Positions 12,143-62,587 of a DNA stretch of 64,000 bases are shown here, in pieces. The position numbers were made by a program, and so were the translations under genes. Position 1 is the first letter of the stretch. Each line of letters starts with the position of its first letter. Origin of the DNA: Planctomycetota bacterium (lineage in GTDB: Bacteria > Planctomycetota > MHYJ01 > JACQXL01); assembly GCA_043801445.1 (NCBI GenBank), contig JAZDMB010000012.1:714-64713 (forward strand), in the 5' to 3' direction. Below the pieces are notes generated by a model. That model worked only from the letters and a program-made list of their open reading frames with translations, did no database searches and had not been told where the DNA came from.

Positions 12143-12437
12143 GTATCCCAAGGGATGACTGGCTTGTTCCAAGGGACGAAGGGTTTGTACTCAAGAACAG
12201 CTGAGTTGTACCAAGGAATAATTGGGCTGTTCCAAAGAACGAACGGTTTGTACTGAGGGACGAAGGGTTTGTACTGAAGAACGACTGAGTTGTACCAAGG
12301 AACAATTGGACTGTTCCAAGGAACGACCGGCTTGTACTGAAGAACGAACGCTGGTACTCAAGAACGAATGGCTTGTACTGAGGAACGAAGGGTTCATCCC
12401 TAGGGCTGAACGGTTTAGACTCAGGGATATCTGAGAT
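12143..12437 (+). repeat. 21-bp tandem repeat array 3 (about 14 units, with an 84-bp higher-order period)
   Basis: Units start at 12166, 12187, 12208, 12229, 12250, 12271, 12292, 12313, 12334 (a 20-bp unit), 12354, 12375, 12396 and 12417. A typical unit is GTACTGAAGAACGACTGAGTT. The 4-unit block 12187-12270 is repeated at 12271-12353. Confidence 0.9.
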
Positions 12438-12532: not shown

Positions 12533-12560
12533 TTGACACAGACTGTTTTTTGATTATAAT
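12533..12560 (+). promoter_or_regulatory. sigma70-like promoter candidate for 12783-14948
   Basis: TTGACA (12533-12538), 16-nt spacer, TATAAT (12555-12560). Implies a ~220-nt structured leader. Confidence 0.4.
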
Positions 12561-12782
12561 AATTAATTAGACGAAGCAAGAAAACTTCGTAACCACAGAC
12601 AAACACAGATTGACACAGATAATTGACGATATTTTATAAGGAATCCATTAGACCAAGATTAATCCTTTCTTGTATTCTTGGTCTCTTTATAGACATATCG
12701 TATTGCTCTGTGAACTCTGTGGCTAATTTTTACCTGTGCCCGTAGGGTATACTTTCCTATACCTTAAAAAAAGGAGTAGTTT

Positions 12783-14948
12783 ATGATTAACATACTGAAA
12801 GGTATCAGCGGATTTATTATAATAGCCATCGTGATAGCATTGGGGTTCGGTATTGTCCGGGCAGTTCCGGTCGGTAAGGAAACGCCAAAGCAGGAGAAAG
12901 CTACACCGGTACAGAGCGAGACCAAAGAAAAAACACCTGCCCGACTGGACACCCAGTCAGGCGGGAAAGAGGAACAAACTCCCCGCGAAAAGGAAATATG
13001 GATTTATAAACTGATTCATAAACTGGAGACTTCGCAAGACCTGTGGGTCAAAGTGGAGGCGGTAAAAAAACTGGGCGAGTTAAAAGACCCCAAGGTAATC
13101 ACGGCACTTGCCAGAGCGCTCAATGACGAAAGTGTTGATATCTGTGTGGAAGCGCTGCGCGCCCTAAAGAAAATAGGCGATGCCGAATCGCTCAAACTAC
13201 TTATGACCGGCACCGTCATCTACGATATGCAGTCACTCCGTTTCTATGCCCTTGAAGCAGCCCTGGCTATCGACCCGGTAAAAACCCGGGAATTCCTTAA
13301 AGCCAATTTCAAAAGCGTATTTCCTAATGTCCGCAATAATGCCGCTGAATCACTGGCGAATCTGGTCACTCTCACCAATAAAAGAGACAAGGAATCTATC
13401 GAACAATTAGTGAGTCTTTTAAGCCATGAACCGAATAAAGACAATCGTGAAAAAATAGCAGAATCACTAAATCTCATTACTCAGGCTGAACTGACCTCTG
13501 CAGAACCCAAAGACTGGCAGGAGTGGTGGCACAAGAATAAAAAAACCATGAGCGAAAATATAAAAACCAAAGAAGTGATTACAGGGACGGAAAAACCGGA
13601 AACAAAACCGAGCCCTGAAAAAAAAGCCAAAGCCATTAAACAGAAAAAAGCGCAGGATGAATTTGATGCGTTCAAAGACAAGACAATCCTGGACAGAAAT
13701 CCCGACGACCCGACCAAATCCTATTTCGCAGGCCGTTCTGAGGAAGGTAAAACGCTCTCAGTAGCCGCATTTGCCAACGGTGACAGCCGCGTCCTGAAAC
13801 TGGTGGAAGACGCCCTTAACTGGCTGCAGCGTCACCAGGAAAAAGAAGGATTCTGGGACTATAACGGCTATGTTAAACACTGCCATTCCAGTCCGCCAGG
13901 GGCAGATATATCTCCGGCACAGGGTAACCCGCCGGAGGTGGGTCTGCCTCAGGCACAGGGCAGCAAGGAAAAAACTGCATCCGACAAGAAGAAGACTGCA
14001 TCCGATAAAACAGACGATACCACCGAGATTAAAGGTGATTATGACGTAGCCGTAACAGGCTTGGCATTACTGGCATTCCTCGGAGCCGGACATACTCATA
14101 TGCCGGGCCAGAAAGTCGGATTACCGGCCGGCGGAAAATATAAACCTACTGTAGAACGCGGACTGCACTGGCTGGTTTCCAATCAGAACGGCGACGGCAG
14201 TTTCCGCAATCCAGTCACAGGCGGTGTCGGCAACAAGGTCAATATGTTTGAACAGGCGATGGCAACACTGGCGATATCCGAGGCATACGGCATGACCGGC
14301 GACGAAACGCTGAAAGTCCCGGCGCAGAAGGCGATGAGCTTTATCAATTATGCCAAGAACCCGGGCAAGGGCTGGCGTTATACGCCTAATTGCAGCGATA
14401 ACGATACCTCTGTTGTCGGCTGGCAGGTCTTTGCACTGAAATCAGGCAAGGTTTCAGGTCTGGACATAAACCGCAACGATTTCGTTGACGCATCCAAATG
14501 GCTGGATGATATGACTAATTTAGAAACTGCCCGGGTCGGTTATAACAAAAAAGGAACCGGCTCTACTGCCATTACTTCTATCGGCATTATCTGCAAGATG
14601 CTTCTGGGCTGGCGTAATGATTCGCCCATTTTACAAAAGGGAGCGGAAATCGTCCTTAAGGATGACTCTTACCAGGGCGAGACACAGGATTTCTATCATA
14701 TCTACCAGACCTCTCTGGCGATGTTCCAGATGGGCGGACGCTACTGGGAAAACTGGAATAGCCAGATGACAAATTTCCTGGGTAATGCAGCCGTCAAAGA
14801 AGGCTGTGAACACGGCAGTTGGTCTGCCCGGATTGAGAAATGGTCTAAAAGCAGGGTTTACACCACAGCACTTGGCGCACTGTCGCTGGAAATCTATTAC
14901 CGATACCTGCCATTTGCCAGAACTGAAAAGTCAGAACAGCCGATGTAG
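12783..14948 (+). CDS. membrane-anchored HEAT-repeat / prenyltransferase-squalene-oxidase-repeat protein
   Basis: N-terminal TM helix. HEAT-like units follow (KVEAVKKLGELKDPKVITALARALNDESVDICVEALRALKKIG). The C-terminal half has terpenoid-cyclase-type repeats (QNGDGSF, GKGWRY, EHGSWS, LGALSLEIYYRY). SD AAAAGGAG. Contains two in-frame GC-rich elements. Confidence 0.85.
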   Translation: MINILKGISGFIIIAIVIALGFGIVRAVPVGKETPKQEKATPVQSETKEKTPARLDTQSGGKEEQTPREKEIWIYKLIHKLETSQDLWVKVEAVKKLGELKDPKVITALARALNDESVDICVEALRALKKIGDAESLKLLMTGTVIYDMQSLRFYALEAALAIDPVKTREFLKANFKSVFPNVRNNAAESLANLVTLTNKRDKESIEQLVSLLSHEPNKDNREKIAESLNLITQAELTSAEPKDWQEWWHKNKKTMSENIKTKEVITGTEKPETKPSPEKKAKAIKQKKAQDEFDAFKDKTILDRNPDDPTKSYFAGRSEEGKTLSVAAFANGDSRVLKLVEDALNWLQRHQEKEGFWDYNGYVKHCHSSPPGADISPAQGNPPEVGLPQAQGSKEKTASDKKKTASDKTDDTTEIKGDYDVAVTGLALLAFLGAGHTHMPGQKVGLPAGGKYKPTVERGLHWLVSNQNGDGSFRNPVTGGVGNKVNMFEQAMATLAISEAYGMTGDETLKVPAQKAMSFINYAKNPGKGWRYTPNCSDNDTSVVGWQVFALKSGKVSGLDINRNDFVDASKWLDDMTNLETARVGYNKKGTGSTAITSIGIICKMLLGWRNDSPILQKGAEIVLKDDSYQGETQDFYHIYQTSLAMFQMGGRYWENWNSQMTNFLGNAAVKEGCEHGSWSARIEKWSKSRVYTTALGALSLEIYYRYLPFARTEKSEQPM
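13927..14006 (+). repeat. GC-rich ~62-bp element, in frame inside CDS 12783-14948
   Basis: ACCCGCCGGAGGTGGGTCTGCCTCAGGCACAGGGCAGCAAGGAAAAAACTGCATCCGACAAGAAGAAGACTGCATCCGATA, translated as NPPEVGLPQAQGSKEKTASDKKKTASD. Confidence 0.8.
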
Positions 14949-14996: not shown

Positions 14997-15998
14997 TTAT
15001 CCCCTCAACACGACCACATCAAATGTATTATCCGCTATAGCCGGCTGGTTTAGTAAGATTGAAACACCTGTGCCTTGCGGTAACCCAGGTAACAGGAATA
15101 GTTGCCTGATTAACTGGTCTTGATTCGTGGGAATAGAGTAACCTAAAATCACACCGCCATTCAAATCCGGGTCTCCCAAAGGCGGATATAACCCGCCTAC
15201 TTGTAATGCTGGAATTGTGATGCTGACAATCTTATAACTTAATTTAGTTTTCGATACCGCGCCATCGGCAATTTCACCTGTTGCAACAGGAGGGACTAAC
15301 GGCCTCACCGCTCCACCCGGAACAAAAGACAATTTCTCCGGTGTTACTGCACCGTTACTAATCTTGGCGGTCTCTACTGCGTTCGTGGCAAGTTTAGCAG
15401 CAGTAACTGCGCTGGATGCAATCTTCTGAGCGATTATTGAAGCATCGGCAATCTCATCAGTCGCAACCGGTGGCGTTATCGGGCGGACAATAGACGGCGG
15501 AACAAAAGACAATTTCGCCGGAGTTACCGAGCCATTGGCTATCTTCTCCGTTGTAACCGCACCATTCGCTAACCGAGCACTGCTAACTGCCCCAGATGCA
15601 ATCTTCGCACTCGTTACTGCGCTGGTGGCAATCTTCTCGGTCGTTACTGCGCCATTGATTATCTTCTCGGTGATAACGGTATTCGGTTGTAGGTGAGCGG
15701 TGCTAATTGCGCCATTCGCTAGTCGCTCACCGCTAACCGCTCCAGGGGCAATCTTCAGTGTTGTTACTGCGCCGGTGGCGATTTTCTCAGTTGTGACACA
15801 TGCATCCTTTAACCGGGAACTGCTTACCTGTTTCTCGCCGATTTTATCACGGGTCACCGCTCCATTAGCAATCTTTTCGGTAGTTACACTTGCAACCTGT
15901 AACTTAGAACTTGAAACCTGCAACTCGCCTATTTTAGGCGCTGTCACCGCGCCGTTAGCAATATGCTCGGTCTTTACCTCATTCGGTAATAATGACAT
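14997..15998 (-). CDS. decapeptide-repeat (fibre-like) protein of unknown function, cassette copy 1 gene B
   Basis: About 19 units of 'T(E/D)KIA.GAVT'-type 10-residue repeats, then a C-terminal domain nearly identical to that of 61733-62587. No signal peptide. Confidence 0.8.
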   Translation of the reverse strand: MSLLPNEVKTEHIANGAVTAPKIGELQVSSSKLQVASVTTEKIANGAVTRDKIGEKQVSSSRLKDACVTTEKIATGAVTTLKIAPGAVSGERLANGAISTAHLQPNTVITEKIINGAVTTEKIATSAVTSAKIASGAVSSARLANGAVTTEKIANGSVTPAKLSFVPPSIVRPITPPVATDEIADASIIAQKIASSAVTAAKLATNAVETAKISNGAVTPEKLSFVPGGAVRPLVPPVATGEIADGAVSKTKLSYKIVSITIPALQVGGLYPPLGDPDLNGGVILGYSIPTNQDQLIRQLFLLPGLPQGTGVSILLNQPAIADNTFDVVVLRG

Positions 15999-16073: not shown

Positions 16074-16733
16074 CTATGGACTGACCGTGCATTTGGCGGT
16101 TTCGCTGAACGGACCCGTGCGTATCTTCTTATCAAACCACTGCGCCCGGTATTCCACATTAGTCGGCTCGGTTATTGCCAGATTGTGTAAATAGGGGCTG
16201 TTGGTGTCATCCGCCACGAATGTCCACGGCCCGCTTTCTATCCGATACGAGATTCTTGCACCGGCAATGTCAGCCGGCTTGGCATTGCGTTTCTCATTGG
16301 ACGGGTTAACGCCGAAATGAACCGTCACCTGTCCGCGCTGTTTCCAGTCCAGAATCAGGTTAGGTGGCGCCAGATTCAGCACATAGTCCGGCGGAATCGG
16401 GGTCGGTTCCCTATCCGGCACGGTAATTGCCAGAATTTCGCGGTTTGCGTCGGTCATCCCCGGATGTTTCTGGAGCATCCCTGCCACAGCCCTGACCGCA
16501 TCTTTAGCAGCATCACGCAATTCATCCTTGTTTTCTGCGGCTGATTGGGCGGTATTTTGTGCCGTCTGGAGCGCCACATAACCAATCAGCCAATCATCAT
16601 AGGCATCGGTTACTGCGGTAATCAAAGCCGGGGCAATCCCCAGCGGAGTCGCAATCACACTGATATTAGTGCTGAAATTACGAAGCCATTCGTCAAACTG
16701 GGCGTCCACCCTTGGTATATAATCTCTTGCCAT
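16074..16733 (-). CDS. hypothetical protein (helical N-terminal half, beta-rich C-terminal half), cassette copy 1 gene A
   Basis: Paralog of 60939-61613 (YIP..DA.F..W..NF..., ...DTNSPY.HN..., ...AQWFD...R.GPF). Strong SD AGGAGGTGAAAT before the ATG. Confidence 0.8.
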   Translation of the reverse strand: MARDYIPRVDAQFDEWLRNFSTNISVIATPLGIAPALITAVTDAYDDWLIGYVALQTAQNTAQSAAENKDELRDAAKDAVRAVAGMLQKHPGMTDANREILAITVPDREPTPIPPDYVLNLAPPNLILDWKQRGQVTVHFGVNPSNEKRNAKPADIAGARISYRIESGPWTFVADDTNSPYLHNLAITEPTNVEYRAQWFDKKIRTGPFSETAKCTVSP

Positions 16734-16796
16734 ATTTCACCTCCTACTTTACCATAAGTTATTACAGTTACAGTTGTTATGCAAATTATCCGGTGC

Positions 16797-17076
16797 CTGA
16801 AACAAACCGGTCGTTGCTCTCTACGAACCGGTCGTTGCCCTCTACGAACCGTTGTTGTCATCTACGAACCGGTCGTTGCCTTCTACGAACTAGTCGTTGC
16901 CCTCTACGAACCAGTCGTCGCTCTCTACGAACCGGTCGTTGCTTTCTACGAACCGGTCGTTGCCCTCTACGAAACATCGTTGCCTTCTACAAACCGGTCG
17001 TTGCCCTCTACGAATCCCTTGTCGCTCTCTACGAACGAGTTGTCGCCCTCTACGAACTTCTCGTAGCTCTCTACAA
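16797..17076 (-). repeat. 21-bp tandem repeat array 1 (about 13 units), upstream of cassette copy 1
   Basis: The plus-strand unit is CTACGAACCGGTCGTTGCCCT (gene orientation TCGTAGAGGGCAACGACCGGT). Two units are 20 bp, which shifts every reading frame. Confidence 0.9.
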
Positions 17077-17089
17077 ATCACCTCCTTTC
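17077..17089 (-). promoter_or_regulatory. 13-nt complement of the 16S rRNA 3' tail (GAAAGGAGGTGAT) at the head of array 1
   Basis: The minus strand reads GGAAAGGAGGTGATTTGTAG, the same motif and TTG as at 60533-60549, but here the TTG is followed immediately by TAG. Confidence 0.6.
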
Positions 17090-17102
17090 CGTATAGTTAA
17101 TA

Positions 17103-57574: not shown

Positions 57575-57875
57575 AACAGTCCTGTACAATGAAGTGATGA
57601 CGCACCACCCGGATGGGAAATCTTATTATTTCGGATTTTGATGAAAATATTTATGGGCTAAATAAGATGACAGGTATGAATGCCTAATAATTATTTTCAA
57701 ATAATTCTCAAAAATAATAAACCACCCTGCCCTTTTTTCGTTTATATATGATAATAACTATCGCCCCCGACATTCGTCGGGATAACTGGCTGTAACAACC
57801 ATAGGTCTAACAGCCAGATAAGAAAGGAGGTGTGTAATTAACAACACGAAGAACAACGAATCCCTACGGGAGGCA

Positions 57876-58082
57876 GTGCTCTGGCTAAACCTGGAGATGG
57901 TAGAATCCAAACTTATTACTTTGTTCAGGGAACTGATTAACCATCCCGGCTTTGGCGAACTTCGGGTGGATGTAAAGATATTGAGAAAAGGTAAAAAGGA
58001 AGTGGTATTGTCATCCGGTAAACAATACCGCTTTATCCTTAAACCGGCAGTGGTCAGGACAGACGAAAGAAAAATCGTCTAA
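57876..58082 (+). CDS. small DUF2292(YezD)-like protein
   Basis: '...L..LI.HPGFGEL.V.V.........VVLSSGKQYRF' resembles the YezD-type small beta protein. Start is uncertain: GTG 57876, ATG 57897, or a non-canonical ATT at 57837 placed 6 nt after a 12-nt SD. Confidence 0.55.
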   Translation: MLWLNLEMVESKLITLFRELINHPGFGELRVDVKILRKGKKEVVLSSGKQYRFILKPAVVRTDERKIV

Positions 58083-58194
58083 AACCAATCAATCAGCCTG
58101 CGACGCAGGTCTTCACGGGGCATATTTCGGCATATCGAAAATCCCCTCATTGCTTTAATTTTGTATGTCATCCTAATCATAGAAAGGAATATAT

Positions 58195-60390
58195 ATGAAG
58201 CGATGGGATTTGTTTCTACTAATCATTTTATTATTAGTTTGGGAATTTGGCGTTTCAGCAGTTCTGGGAGATGACAAGCCCGCCCGCCCGAACGCCGAAG
58301 GCGGGCAGGCAGGCAGTCCCGGTGCGGAGCCTCCCGTAGGGGCTAATAGGGACAAACCGATAACCCCAACCAAGACCGAAGAAATCATTGTCACGGCAAC
58401 GCGTTCTGAGATGAAACCGTTTGAGACGGCGTATATCGCCGATGTCATCACGACAGAAGATATCCGGAACCAAAAGATGAGCCGGAGTATGCCTGATATA
58501 TTCTCATCCGACCCATCGGTTACCGTCCAGAAGACTTCACAGGGCCAGGGCTCACCGTTTATCCGCGGCTTTACCGGATTTCGTAACCTGCTCCTGATAG
58601 ACGGCATCCGCCTGAATAATTCGGTCTTCCGCGATGGGCCTAATGAATATTGGAATACGGTTGACTCATTCACCATCGGGCGATTAGAAATAGTCAAAGG
58701 ACATTCCTCTGTCCTTTATGGAAGTGACGCGATTGGCGGAACGGTCAATGTCATAACTATTTCTCCGGAACAGGAAAAAGGATTCTCCGCTCGTGCCTCA
58801 GAACGGTATGCCACGGCTGATAACTCAAGTGTTGCCAGAACCGAAATCAGCGGTGCGTTCAATAAATCTATCAGGATACTTGTGGGCGTTTCAGGGAAGA
58901 ATTTTAATGAACTGCGCGGCGGCGAACATACCGGCGAACAACCCAAGACCGGCTACAAAGAGATGGACTATGACTTAAAAATGGAATATCTTATAGGAGG
59001 TCATGATAAACTCGTTATAGCCCATCAGCGGGTGAACCAACCCGATGTCTGGCGAACTCACGCGACTATCTACGGCATCTCATGGCAGGATACCGCGATT
59101 GGCACTGACAAAGCGCGCTACTATAATCACCAGCGTCAATTAACATATTTACAATATTACAAAGATGATGCCGGTTTTCTGGGCGATAAGGCGAAATTCT
59201 CGCTCTCATATCAAAGTCAAGATGAACAGTTGTTTCGTAAGAGAAGTAATAACAAAATGGAGCGTTCAGGTTTTGATGTCAACACACTTGGTCTTTCAGC
59301 CCAGATGGAACGGACGACTTCATTAGGACGCTTTGTTTATGGCACAGAATTCTACCGTGATAATGTGGACTCTTTCTCGAAAAAGTATTTAGCCAGCGGC
59401 GCCATTGATACTATTGAAATTCAGGGACCGGTGGCTGATGATGCGGTTTACGATTTGGTTGGCGTATTTATCCAGGATGAATATCCGTTAAAACCATCAT
59501 TGAATCTAACATCAGGTGTCCGTTATAACCAGGCATCAATTGATGCGGATAAGGTCAAAGACCCCACGATTATTACACCCACAACTATAGCCATTTCTGA
59601 CAGTTGGAGTAACCTATCCGGTAACCTGCGGCTATCATATATGCCAACCGAGAAGTGGAATATCTTTGGCGGTGTCTCGCAGGGGTTTCGGGCGCCGAAT
59701 CTTTCCGACCTCTCACGGCTTGACATTGCACTCTCCAATGAAATAGAAACACCATCGCCGAACCTAAAACCAGAGAATTATTTATCCATAGAAGCCGGAG
59801 CCAAGACCGGTTCAGGAAAACTGAACAGCCAATGCGCCTTCTTCTACACCATCATAAATGATATAATTGTCCGTTACCCGACCGGTATCACCATCACCGG
59901 CTTGAACGAGGTGCAGAAGGCAAATGTGGGTGATGGAAATATCTATGGCTTTGAATTGAAAGTCAACTACTTGTTGAATAATACATGGTCGGTCTTTGGA
60001 GGCGGGAGTAGCCAGCGTGGTCAAGTGGATACTTATATTTCCGCTGGTGTTAAAGAACGCTGTCCAATGTCCAAGATTCCGCCGGCAATGGCTATCCTCG
60101 GTATCCGCAGAACTGATGTTTCAGGCAAATGGTGGGCAGAATTAGAAACGAAAATGGCTAACAACCAGAACCGGCTCTCACCCTTAGATAAACTTGATAC
60201 CCAAAGAATTCCGCCGGATGGCACACCCGGCTACACAATCTATAACATCAGGGGAGGAATAAATATCAGCAAGAACTTTAAGGCATCTTTAGGTATAGAA
60301 AACATCAGCAACCGGGACTACCGGATTCACGGCTCAGGCAATAATGAGCTAGGCAGGAATGTTATACTATCAGTCGGCGGAGCTTTTTAG
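58195..60390 (+). CDS. TonB-dependent outer-membrane receptor
   Basis: Signal peptide; plug motifs ('IIVTATRSE', 'SPFIRGF', 'IDG.R.N', 'IEIVKG..SVLYGSDAIGG.VN.IT'); beta-barrel ending in a terminal aromatic residue ('GRNVILSVGGAF'). A GC-rich insertion follows the signal peptide. Confidence 0.92.
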   Translation: MKRWDLFLLIILLLVWEFGVSAVLGDDKPARPNAEGGQAGSPGAEPPVGANRDKPITPTKTEEIIVTATRSEMKPFETAYIADVITTEDIRNQKMSRSMPDIFSSDPSVTVQKTSQGQGSPFIRGFTGFRNLLLIDGIRLNNSVFRDGPNEYWNTVDSFTIGRLEIVKGHSSVLYGSDAIGGTVNVITISPEQEKGFSARASERYATADNSSVARTEISGAFNKSIRILVGVSGKNFNELRGGEHTGEQPKTGYKEMDYDLKMEYLIGGHDKLVIAHQRVNQPDVWRTHATIYGISWQDTAIGTDKARYYNHQRQLTYLQYYKDDAGFLGDKAKFSLSYQSQDEQLFRKRSNNKMERSGFDVNTLGLSAQMERTTSLGRFVYGTEFYRDNVDSFSKKYLASGAIDTIEIQGPVADDAVYDLVGVFIQDEYPLKPSLNLTSGVRYNQASIDADKVKDPTIITPTTIAISDSWSNLSGNLRLSYMPTEKWNIFGGVSQGFRAPNLSDLSRLDIALSNEIETPSPNLKPENYLSIEAGAKTGSGKLNSQCAFFYTIINDIIVRYPTGITITGLNEVQKANVGDGNIYGFELKVNYLLNNTWSVFGGGSSQRGQVDTYISAGVKERCPMSKIPPAMAILGIRRTDVSGKWWAELETKMANNQNRLSPLDKLDTQRIPPDGTPGYTIYNIRGGINISKNFKASLGIENISNRDYRIHGSGNNELGRNVILSVGGAF

Positions 60391-60420
60391 AGCCAGTAGG
60401 AACGAAGTGACGTACTGGCT
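60391..60420 (+). terminator. hairpin immediately after the TonB-receptor stop codon
   Basis: AGCCAGTA-N14-TACTGGCT (8-bp stem). No clear U-tract. Confidence 0.3.
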
Positions 60421-60444
60421 CTTATCCCGATGAGTCCCAGAGGG

Positions 60445-60540
60445 ACGACATCGGGGTTAGAACCGGTTTGAGCGTGGCGACATCGGGGTTAGAACCGATT
60501 TGAACGTAGCGACATCAGAGCTAGACCCGGTTAGAAAGGA
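60445..60540 (+). repeat. three tandem 32-bp repeats
   Basis: ACGACATCGGGGTTAGAACCGGTTTGAGCGTG / GCGACATCGGGGTTAGAACCGATTTGAACGTA / GCGACATCAGAGCTAGACCCGGTTAGAAAGGA. The third unit runs into the SD-like motif. Confidence 0.85.
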
Positions 60541-60546
60541 GGTGAT
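60532..60546 (+). promoter_or_regulatory. 15-nt complement of the 16S rRNA 3' tail (TAGAAAGGAGGTGAT) at the head of array 2
   Basis: Perfect complement of a Bacillus-type 16S 3' end ...AUCACCUCCUUUCUA. Followed by TTG at 60547. Confidence 0.6.
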
Positions 60547-60557
60547 TTGATACAAAG

Positions 60558-60725
60558 GGCAGGGAAGGTTTTTCAGACGTCTGGAATAGTTTTCCAGATA
60601 TCTGGAACAGTTTCCCATATGTCTGGAATTATTTTCCAGATGTCTGGAATGATTTCCCAGATGTCTAGAATAGTTTTCCAGATGTATGGGAAAGTTTTCT
60701 GGATGTTCGTGAAAGTCCTACGAAT
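60558..60725 (+). repeat. 21-bp tandem repeat array 2 (8 units), upstream of cassette copy 2
   Basis: Units fall exactly at 60558, 60579, 60600, 60621, 60642, 60663, 60684 and 60705. The consensus GTCTGGAATAGTTTTCCAGAT carries the internal dyad TCTGGAA-N5-TTCCAGA. Confidence 0.9.
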
Positions 60726-60938
60726 GTCCATAACCCCGATGGTTATCGGGATAAGAGGTTGTCCCTAACGGGACTCCCTGCGGTCGTAACGACCATAGGT
60801 CTAACAGCCTCTAATGCTATACAATATAAGGACTTAGAAGCCCCGATGTCGCTGACGCTCATCGGGATAAGACCCAGTAACGCCCTTACCCGATTAGCAT
60901 CGGGTAATTGCTAACTGGCTCTAAAAAGGAGATGTAAG

Positions 60939-61613
60939 ATGGGAAAAAATTATATACCGACAACAGACGCTGATTTTGAGCTCTGGCAGGTGAATTTTGT
61001 GACCAAGGTAGTGGCAACCCCAGCCGCTTATGGGCTTTTGCCGGCTGATGTGATTGATGTCGGAATTGATTCAACTGACTGGCAGACGGCTCTGGCGGCA
61101 TTAGTTGTCGCCCAAAACGCGGCTAAAGGCGCGGCTGAGACTAAGGATGAAGCCCGCGATACCCTGGAATCAGAGGTCCGCAGTTTAGCCAAAAGGATTC
61201 AAGCCAGACCAGCCACGACCGATGCCCAGAGAGAAGAATTGGGTATTACCGTGCCTGACCTGACCCGGACGCCGCTTTCGGAGCAGATTGTCCTGACCAC
61301 GCCGCCGCCGATAGTTGAAGCCAAGTGCACCGGCGCCAAAACCGTCCGGATTGACTGGTATCCAACTCAGGCCCCCGGAGAAAGCGAGGCATTACCCCAG
61401 GGCATTAACGGCGTGTCTATTTTCTACGCCGAAGGCGGGATTCCCAGCGATGAGAGTCAATGGCGTTTCTTAGCACTGGATACCAATTCGCCCTATGTCC
61501 ATAATGTTGCCAATGATGCTACCGTTACCGTGGCATATAAGGCGCAATGGTTTGACCGGCGTAAGCGGTTGGGACCGTTCGGCAATCCGGTAGTCGTGGC
61601 TGTAACCGCGTAA
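60939..61613 (+). CDS. hypothetical protein, cassette copy 2 gene A
   Basis: Paralog of 16074-16733. SD AAAAGGAG. Confidence 0.8.
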   Translation: MGKNYIPTTDADFELWQVNFVTKVVATPAAYGLLPADVIDVGIDSTDWQTALAALVVAQNAAKGAAETKDEARDTLESEVRSLAKRIQARPATTDAQREELGITVPDLTRTPLSEQIVLTTPPPIVEAKCTGAKTVRIDWYPTQAPGESEALPQGINGVSIFYAEGGIPSDESQWRFLALDTNSPYVHNVANDATVTVAYKAQWFDRRKRLGPFGNPVVVAVTA

Positions 61614-61732: not shown

Positions 61733-62587
61733 ATGCCATTGAAACCGAATGAAGTAAAGACCGAGCATATTGCTGACCGCGCAGTGATAACATCAAAGAT
61801 TGCGCCTCTGTCAGTAGGCAGTAGTCAGTTGGCACCGGGTAGTGTAATTACGGAGAAGATTGCAGATGCGTCAGTGACCCGTGATAAAATCGGAGATGCA
61901 CAGGTGACCGGCTCTCGCCTGCGGGATGCCAGTATCACCACTCCGAAAATCGCTAATAATGCCATCACCACAGATAAAATCGGCGTTGGGCAGGTGACCG
62001 GCGCCAAGATGGCAGACAAGACGATAACTGCAGAGAAGATTGCCACCAGCGCGGTGACCACATCCAAAATCGGAGAGTTACAAGTCACGCAAGCCAAGTT
62101 GCAGGATGCCAGTGTCAGCACGCCGAAAATAGCCAATAATGCTGTGACAACACAGAAGATTGTCCTTGGGGCGGTTAACGGTGAGCGGTTAGCGAATGGC
62201 GCAGTTAGCACCGAGAAAATAGTCAATGGCGCAGTGACGCCTGAGAAATTGTCGTTTGTGCCGGGCGGAGCGGTGAGACCATTAGTCCCGCCGGTGGCTA
62301 CAGGTGAAATAGCAGATGGCGCGGTGACGAAATCTAAATTGAGTTATAAAGTTATTAGCATCACAATTTCAGCCCAACAAGTAGGCGGGTTATATCCTCC
62401 TTTAGGAGACCCTGATTTGGATGGCGGTGTGATTTTGGGTTACTCTATACCCACAAATCAAGACCAGTTAATTAGGCAACTGTTCCTGTTACCGGGGTTA
62501 CCGCAAGGCACCGGTGTTTCAATCTTGCTTAACCAGCCAGCTATAGCGGATAATACATTTGATGTGGTGGTACTAAAAAGTTTATAG
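61733..62587 (+). CDS. decapeptide-repeat (fibre-like) protein, cassette copy 2 gene B
   Basis: About 15 units of 10-residue repeats ('TEKIADASVT RDKIGDAQVT GSRLRDASIT TPKIANNAIT ...'), then a C-terminal domain nearly identical to that of 14997-15998. Confidence 0.8.
   Translation: MPLKPNEVKTEHIADRAVITSKIAPLSVGSSQLAPGSVITEKIADASVTRDKIGDAQVTGSRLRDASITTPKIANNAITTDKIGVGQVTGAKMADKTITAEKIATSAVTTSKIGELQVTQAKLQDASVSTPKIANNAVTTQKIVLGAVNGERLANGAVSTEKIVNGAVTPEKLSFVPGGAVRPLVPPVATGEIADGAVTKSKLSYKVISITISAQQVGGLYPPLGDPDLDGGVILGYSIPTNQDQLIRQLFLLPGLPQGTGVSILLNQPAIADNTFDVVVLKSL

Follow-up and report, generated by a model that had tools for sequence, protein, structure and literature searches.

Orphan Shine-Dalgarno sequences and three long 16S-tail complements

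Stabilising orphan Shine-Dalgarno (SD) sequences are known from a handful of Firmicute genes. Among them is the STAB-SD of cry3A, reportedly treated by Agaisse and Lereclus in 1996 and by Mathy et al. in 2007. A standby site, in turn, must lie near the structured ribosome-binding site that it serves. The STAB-SD of cry3A from B. thuringiensis, GAAAGGAGG, is located in the 5' leader and directs no initiation; it binds the 30S subunit and blocks RNase J1, and the long transcript is trimmed to a stable species that starts at the SD, the -558 species being converted in this way to the -129 species (PMC4113751). Ribosomes also bind to the start-stop ORFs of E. coli yecJ and hslR, detected by Ribo-RET, where they modestly tune expression, and plant AUG-stop uORFs have been cited alongside these examples (bioRxiv 10.1101/520783).

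The window, by which we mean the whole 64-kb stretch of planctomycete DNA that was analysed, had been described beforehand as carrying three unusually long complements of the 16S rRNA 3' tail. All three are present, as matches of 12-14 nt to the canonical tail:

60532-60549, plus strand: anti-16S site TAGAAAGGAGGTGAT-TTG, with AGAAAGGAGGTGAT-TTG at 60533-60549
17089-17071, minus strand: anti-16S site GAAAGGAGGTGAT-TTG-TAG, with GGAAAGGAGGTGAT-TTG-TAG at 17090-17071
57821-57832, plus strand: site 3, AGAAAGGAGGTG, with GGAGG at 57826-57830, the evident SD of a small gene

The sequence of the third site was given correctly, although its coordinates (57822-57833) were one base off, and the GTG-TAA reported there does exist, at 57832-57837 instead of 57829. 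The descriptions of the other two sites hold, in that TTG-TAG lies directly 3' of the minus-strand site and the TTG at 60547 opens a frame of 73 codons running across the repeats. In the 64-kb window the sequence AAGGAGGTG occurs three times, at these three sites only, compared with an expected count of 0.37, and at least three copies were reached in one of 100 shuffles. Ordinary genes do use short SD cores, as had been noted: the longest stretch complementary to the 16S tail is typically 4 nt (median over 51 ORF starts) and nowhere exceeds 9 nt, a value reached by AGGAGGTGA, the SD of the gene that starts at 16733. The duplexes predicted with GGAUCACCUCCUUUCU amount to -24.9 kcal/mol for 60533, -25.0 kcal/mol for 17090, and -20.2 kcal/mol for 57821, compared with a median of -5.7 kcal/mol at the 51 ordinary gene starts, where the strongest duplex reaches -17.8 kcal/mol.

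All of these pairing figures assume the canonical 16S tail ending in ...GAUCACCUCCUUUCU, which we take to be the host's own, since no rRNA was found in the window or in any of the fetched loci. The canonical tail is also supported by real genes in related loci, which carry 13-nt matches to it (e.g., AGAAAGGAGGTGA). A survey of related sequence amounting to 734 kb (the window together with the loci) yielded 18 anti-16S matches of at least 12 nt, ten of them at array edges, six at real gene starts, one at site 3, and one unassigned. All six matches at ordinary starts have an ATG 6-12 nt after GGAGG. Long matches at ordinary starts, which had been named as an observation that would speak against a special role, are thus a part of the picture (six of 18), although array edges are strongly enriched nonetheless. 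As matches of 12-13 nt are found at ordinary starts of related genomes, the length of the match is not unique by itself. Such ordinary strong SDs (L114, L016, L101, L095, and site 3 of the window) share with the two remaining sites both the sequence and the upstream hairpin-TAAG module; they differ in that an ATG (ATT at site 3) lies 6-12 nt after GGAGG and is followed by a conserved ORF, whereas the two other sites have neither. The grouping of the three sites into a single class is therefore not supported. Site 57821 is an ordinary strong SD, and the other two represent a conserved box; the suggestion of ribosome docking can be retained for 60533 (+) and 17090 (-), where an SD-like box is conserved at the 5' edge of an array, and has to be abandoned for 57821.

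The conserved box, the period-21 arrays, and their operons

Judged by their sequence, the sites at 60533 (+) and 17090 (-) represent a single conserved element, gAAAGGAGGTGATTtg, in two copies. They are called here box C and box B, and each of them heads the leader of a two-gene operon:

60533-60549, plus strand: box C, AGAAAGGAGGTGATTTG, an orphan, full-length SD-like sequence with a 14-nt perfect anti-16S match, at the 5' edge of array C
60562-60716, plus strand: array C, about seven units with a period of 21 (GTTTTCCAGATGTCTGGAATA), each unit palindromic
60717-60938, plus strand: rest of leader C, structured, with an AAAGTCCT...AGGACTT stem and hairpin-TAAG modules at 60841-60922, ending in the operon SD AAAGGAG
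60939-61613, plus strand: gene A, 224 aa, with a predicted N-terminal helical hairpin and C-terminal FN3 domain
61733-62587, plus strand: gene B, 284 aa, with tail-fibre-like repeats
17074-17090, minus strand: box B, GGAAAGGAGGTGATTTG, with TAG directly after it, starting 12 nt past the stop codon of a PHO4 transporter gene
16805-17073, minus strand: array B, about 12 units with a period of 21 (GTTCGTAGAGGGCAACGACCG)
16074-16733, minus strand: paralogue of gene A, 219 aa, 41% identical to 60939-61613, with its own SD AGGAGGTGA
14997-15998, minus strand: paralogue of gene B, 333 aa, 61% identical to gene B

The distance from the box to the ATG of gene A is 406 nt in operon C and 357 nt in operon B, and gene A has an SD of its own. 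In both operons of the window a further 70-220 nt of leader, rich in hairpins, separates the array from gene A. The predicted fold of gene A consists of a long helical hairpin followed by an FN3 domain; neither gene A nor gene B matches any family in Pfam or NCBIfam, no DNA-binding family was matched by them in Pfam, PHROGs, or NCBIfam, and none was matched by the model of gene A in structure searches. Homologues of gene A number 110 and are found in Planctomycetota, Stahlbacteria, WOR-3, Sumerlaeota, and other MAGs. The comparison is based on 129 related loci that were fetched, the closest relatives being Planctomycetota and Brocadiia MAGs.

Twenty-four distinct loci, 22 of them beyond the window in Planctomycetota-type MAGs and metagenomes, carry the box at the 5' edge of their period-21 array, and it reads on the gene strand in every case. 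When these 24 loci are aligned on GGAGG, high information content is found over gAAAGGAGGTGATTtg only, a stretch that coincides with the 16S-tail complement AGAAAGGAGGTGAT plus a run of T. Conservation is absent 5' of the box, and neither flanks nor arrays of different loci can be aligned with one another. GGAGGT is essentially invariant in the 24 loci, with the identity of gene A down to 35-40%. GGAGGT is retained in the variants of the box, whose pairing is shorter to one or the other side of it, and this fits selection on the strength of pairing and not on one fixed motif. The T-run and the TAGAGGGC tract that follow the box on its 3' side are partly conserved, and neither of them complements 16S rRNA. 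Among 78 non-redundant arrays, a duplex of -18 kcal/mol or stronger is predicted in 26% of the 5' edge windows, in none of the upstream controls, and in 2% of the array interiors (Mann-Whitney p = 4e-7); roughly two out of three arrays, among them array A at 12164, have no strong SD at the edge. The box is predicted to be accessible: its unpaired probability of 0.54 comes close to that of the SD of gene A (0.58) and exceeds the 0.37 of the remaining leader (p = 2e-4). Pairing of the box as an anti-anti-SD with a CCUCC of its own leader was considered and rejected, as CCTCC is absent from both leaders in the window and the best duplex between box and leader is weaker than that formed by shuffled boxes. 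Similarly, a known RNA family could be dismissed for the box and its leader, because Rfam 15 gave no match at the gathering score in the window, where only sub-threshold hits, resembling miRNA precursors, fall on the palindromic array.

In most loci with enough upstream sequence a period-21 array lies directly 5' of gene A. No other repeat period comes near 21 in frequency, and every locus has a unit sequence of its own. The arrays comprise 4-14 units (12164-12394, 16805-17073, and 60562-60716 in the window; L001-L129), and they are hosted by MAGs of Planctomycetota, WOR-3, Stahlbacteria, Elusimicrobia, Sumerlaeota, Verrucomicrobiota, and Acidobacteria, with many contigs ending at arrays. Palindromic units are enriched without being universal (mean z = -0.97 for 80 arrays). 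A search of the literature on 21-nt arrays returned no relevant description. The third period-21 array of the window, array A (12164-12394), has neither an SD box nor a gene A. In L131-L133, at about 1925-2100, the unit itself, GATTTAATGACTAAAGGGAGA, consists of an SD-like sequence and an ATG and is present in about seven copies, which gene callers read as an ORF encoding (MTKGRDL)n. A related box, ATGAATGATTTAGGGAGGTCTGTGAA, is located at the 5' array edge in WOR-3 and CSMAG loci (L008, L010, L011, L014, L016, L017, L028, L032, and L034) and can be aligned to the GGAGGTGATTTGTAGAGGGCGGTGAA of Planctomycetota. The SD-like part of this related box is positioned elsewhere, and in nine of ten loci the ATG frame of the box (MNDLGRSVKES...) runs through the array without a stop.

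What follows the box is much more variable than the box itself. An ATG within 13 nt of GGAGG is found in none of the 24 loci; TTG lies 3-4 nt past GGAGG in 14 of them, and GTG overlaps the SD itself. The ORFs that begin at the TTG or GTG of the box extend over 1-94 codons in differing frames and encode unrelated peptides, and two of the 24 loci have no start codon. An SD-TTG-TAG start-stop is present at box B, L056, and L124, and TTG-GTA-TAG in L002 and L029. The preliminary description had seen in the null ORF a part of the design, an idea not borne out by this range of lengths; since the start-stop occurs in only these three cases, and not at box C or at most of the 24 boxes, it does not define the element. 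Real initiation, or abortive or short translation, may take place from the TTG at +3/+4 in the 14 boxes that have it. The boxes resemble leader-peptide uORFs and attenuators in that an SD heads a long, hairpin-bearing leader; no start codon, frame, length, or peptide is conserved among them. All forward frames are closed in 17 of the 78 arrays, and the mean number of open frames is lower in the forward direction (1.40) than in reverse (1.72) or in shuffled units (2.06). As a class the arrays are therefore not coding, and their interpretation as coding heptad repeats begun by the box was rejected on account of these missing and stop-rich forward frames and of the unrelated peptides.

On its 5' side the box can be part of a larger module. 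In L031, L052, L077, L080, and L102 it lies directly 3' of a stem followed by (C/T)TAAG(A), and the same module is found 5' of the genuine gene A SD in L052, L066, L119, L124, and L125, as well as in the window at 60841-60922, in a gene-proximal position, and before site 3. The box thus shares its module with real starts and has the make-up of a genuine ribosome-binding site, the normal translation-start cassette of the lineage set where no gene follows. The full order of elements in this leader module is a GC hairpin, (A/T)CTAAG, a stem with inner GTAAC...CTAAC, TAAGA, and the SD, with covarying stems; it can be traced at 57766-57817, 60390-60421, and 60841-60922 and in L029, L031, L052, L066, L070, L077, L080, L101, L102, and L119, precedes real gene starts and orphan boxes alike, and is without an Rfam entry. 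Upstream of box C, 32-nt repeats (CGACATCGGGGTTAGAACCGGTTTGAACGTAG, 2.8 copies, 60446-60536) run straight into the box, and the third copy gives the impression of an insertion of AAGGAGGT ahead of GATTTGA. On the other side of the array, a conserved tract (16734-16805; L029, L080, L111, L119, L124, and L127) forms a covarying hairpin that ends in ATAAC and is followed by TTTAAC-N-TAATAACTTATGGTAAA just ahead of the SD of gene A. A promoter or an attenuator function is conceivable for this hairpin/TTTAAC tract, whose place in C-type leaders is taken by an AAAGTCCT...AAGGACTT stem.

Promoter-like hexamers end upstream of the box in L002, at a distance of 47 nt, and in L124, at 18 nt; a promoter-like site lies directly before the array in L030, and consensus promoters are located 3' of the array in L009, L012, and array A of the window. 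The last of these, a perfect TTGACA-N17-TATAAT at about 12545-12573, is found some 150 nt past array A and ahead of a HEAT-repeat gene (12783-14948). Taken over all loci, neither side of the arrays is enriched in promoter-like sites, and no sigma-70-like promoter was found on the gene strand at or near the boxes of the window; a sigma-70 promoter was consequently rejected as an explanation of these boxes. Since box B begins 12 nt past the PHO4 stop codon, with no promoter-like site on that strand, it would be reachable by read-through only.

Site 3 and the small gene starting at ATT

The third site differs from boxes B and C in serving a gene, and its surroundings include the following elements:

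57766-57817, plus strand: two-hairpin module, CCCGAC..GTCGGG and then CTGGCTGT..ACAGCCAG, directly 5' of the SD at site 3
57837-58082, plus strand: small gene, 81 codons, conserved, starting at ATT

The ATT at 57837 lies 6 nt after the GGAGG of site 3. Seven homologues of the small gene were found, and their N-terminal Met-Asn-Asn/Lys aligns with Ile-Asn-Asn in the window. As the ATT of the window is thereby aligned with the ATG of the homologues, ATT is read as the start codon, and the 61-aa gene call P0111, which begins at an internal ATG, is consequently too short. The SDs of the orthologues are also strong (GAAAGGAGGTGT-ATG in L130 and AAAGGAGGTGATATAG-ATG in L095). On the strength of this alignment, site 57821 serves as the genuine SD of the small gene with its ATT start: SD, 6-nt gap, and conserved ORF are all in place, and the start codon alone is non-canonical. 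Perhaps the strong SD compensates for the weak ATT start codon. The small protein matches nothing in Pfam or PDB, and its AlphaFold2 model has a pLDDT of 52, too low for a confident fold. Homologues of the small gene adjoin arrays and gene A in L095, L130, and L131-133.

A hairpin, TTTCGGCATATCGAAA, and then an anti-SD-like tract, ATC(A/C)CC(T)CC, are present 3' of every small-gene homologue, at 58124-58150 in the window and at about 2735-2760 in L095, 350-380 in L130, 1795-1825 in L131, and 1790-1815 in L134. The hairpin of L130 shows a compensatory change in its stem (CTTCG..CGAAG), and hairpin and tract together resemble the 3' end of 16S rRNA. The tract pairs with the local SD or box beyond shuffled expectation in L095 (z = -3.3), L130 (z = -2.3), and L134 (z = -2.1). 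In the window its pairing with box B, box C, and the SD of site 3 is at chance level (z from -0.3 to +0.5), and the box was for this reason rejected as the pairing partner of the tract there, despite the significant values in the three other loci.

Function of the box and alternative explanations

Comparison of boxes B and C with the described systems points most directly to the STAB-SD of cry3A. Both are perfect complements of the 16S 3' end, placed in a long 5' leader far upstream of the SD of the gene; the cry3A element serves no gene, the boxes probably serve none either, and both precede a structural, probably abundant product. The likeness extends to transcription, as box B would be reached by read-through, comparable with the long cry3A transcript that is trimmed to the STAB-SD. 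Of the features of a STAB-SD, the boxes have the 16S complementarity (to the canonical tail) and a position in a putative leader that is separate from the gene's own SD. The differences are that the complementarity is 13-14 nt in the boxes and 9 nt in cry3A, that the lineage is Planctomycetota and not Firmicutes, and that a period-21 array, and often a TTG, comes after the box. The box thus resembles a STAB-SD at the level of sequence, without being a proven member of that class. The likeness to start-stop ORFs is confined to the SD-TTG-TAG of box B, L056, and L124; this feature is not conserved in the box family (box C opens 73 codons), uses TTG at a short spacing, and is situated in a 5' leader and not within a gene. 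The boxes are also similar to standby sites in being accessible and, by prediction, strongly ribosome-binding upstream of a structured region. A standby function, which the preliminary description had offered, is nevertheless unlikely, because the operon SD is located 357-406 nt downstream, past the array and several hairpins.

We consider it the best-supported reading, still tentative, with a probability of roughly 0.4, that boxes B and C are orphan SDs that dock the 30S subunit on the leader of geneA-geneB and act as stabilisers in the manner of a STAB-SD. The sequence of the box, its conservation and position, the absence of a conserved ORF, and its predicted accessibility stand as observations; we infer that the box binds 30S and stabilises the RNA, and that one transcript covers box and array, the latter from a small number of consensus promoter matches. 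The free 3' tail of 16S rRNA would pair with 13-14 nt of the box, with up to 16 pairs if U-G wobbles are included, and the paired 30S subunit would dock at the 5' edge of the array. There it would initiate poorly, for want of a proper start codon at suitable spacing, or would yield only a start-stop or a short, meaningless peptide. The parked ribosome would form a 5' barrier, shielding the structured leader and the mRNA of the operon from 5'-end-dependent decay. Several observations speak against docking: only RNase E/G homologues are on record for Planctomycetes; promoter-like sites favour neither side of the arrays; most array edges lack a strong SD; the box of WOR-3 type has its SD-like part elsewhere and an ATG frame open in nine of ten loci; the partly conserved T-run and TAGAGGGC tract do not complement 16S rRNA; TTG closely follows GGAGG in 14 of the 24 loci; and in L131-133 an SD-like sequence with ATG is itself the repeat unit.

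Part of what has been described would be expected as well if the box were a working start, with ribosomes entering the array from the TTG or GTG and the act of translating the leader being what matters, for example by unfolding hairpins or by keeping Rho off the 350-400 nt leader, with no role for the peptide. The TTG found 3-4 nt after GGAGG in more than half of the boxes, the module of real starts, and a constant period of 21 nt, equal to seven codons, all agree with such a function, as do the GTG/TTG ORFs that cover at least 65% of the array in seven loci (L002, L003, L029, L058, L124, window C, and window B) and the conserved ATG/GTG frame of WOR-3 type. However, most ORFs of the box stop within 1-23 codons, two boxes lack a start codon altogether, forward stops in the arrays exceed those in reverse or shuffled units, with no forward frame open in 17 of the 78, and the start codons are weak and too near to, or inside, the SD duplex, with no peptide conserved. 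We regard this explanation as doubtful. A decidedly less probable one makes the box the target of a complementary regulator, either an anti-SD-like RNA or an RNA-binding protein, that would control the paralogous leaders jointly. The box is indeed the one sequence common to otherwise unique paralogous leaders, and a candidate RNA exists in the conserved hairpin and AUC(A/C)CCUCC tract that follow every small-gene homologue, given the compensatory change in L130, the pairing beyond shuffled in L095, L130, and L134, and the proximity of the small gene to arrays and gene A in L095, L130, and L131-133; moreover, the conserved TTT after GAT suits AAAAUC better than the GG of 16S rRNA. Against it stand the chance-level pairing of the window's tract with either box and with site 3, the exact match of the 5' part of the box, gAAAGGAGG, to the 16S tail, and the variation of the tracts from locus to locus.

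An action of the box on DNA, as part of a promoter or as the first and most conserved site for a factor that recognises the 21-bp arrays, with its likeness to an SD being secondary, would make sense of the exact period of 21 bp (two helical turns) in unrelated units, which fits helical phasing, and of the many palindromic units. It would also accommodate the consensus promoters that follow the array in L009, L012, and array A, and the resemblance of the box to the GG-N4-G-TTT pattern of many units. Yet the conserved 14-nt block is the complement of the 16S tail, a coincidence very unlikely for an unrelated function on DNA; the box is strictly strand-specific and non-palindromic, no sigma-70-like promoter overlaps the boxes of the window, and genes A and B match no DNA-binding family, so that we hold this explanation to be very unlikely. 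More improbable still is a functionless relic, the left-over translation start of a lost upstream small gene or a duplicate of the operon's own start region, moved together with the arrays when paralogues recombined. Box and upstream hairpin module do form the same cassette as is found before real genes, in L095 and L131 a small gene with an SD of this kind directly precedes the array, and arrays have been swapped among close relatives (the gene A sequences of L001 and L050 are 90-94% identical, and their arrays differ). A relic would hardly have kept GGAGGT near-invariant in 24 loci despite divergent genes A and unalignable flanks, the leaders of the window avoid complementarity to the box, and the relic explanation is weakened further by L130, which has the small gene with its own SD plus a separate box before the array.

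If the docking of 30S by the boxes is true, they would constitute a conserved stabilising orphan SD, with a longer complementarity, in genomes of the Planctomycetota type. The box is tied to striking leaders of an undescribed kind, in which period-21 arrays precede multi-copy fibre operons in many uncultured phyla, and the larger novelty is these cross-phylum arrays. We can speculate, although we think it unlikely to be correct in full, that box and array together make up an undescribed class of cis-acting leader common to several uncultured phyla, in which a full-length SD loads or parks ribosomes and each fibre operon is given a locus-specific, addressable control, possibly with the 81-aa protein and the hairpin resembling the 16S tail. 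For annotation, the strongest SDs of such genomes may mark no gene, and a real gene (57837-58082) has been called too short, as its start codon is ATT. For the biology of the arrays, one 14-nt box offers a testable handle on how their leaders work.
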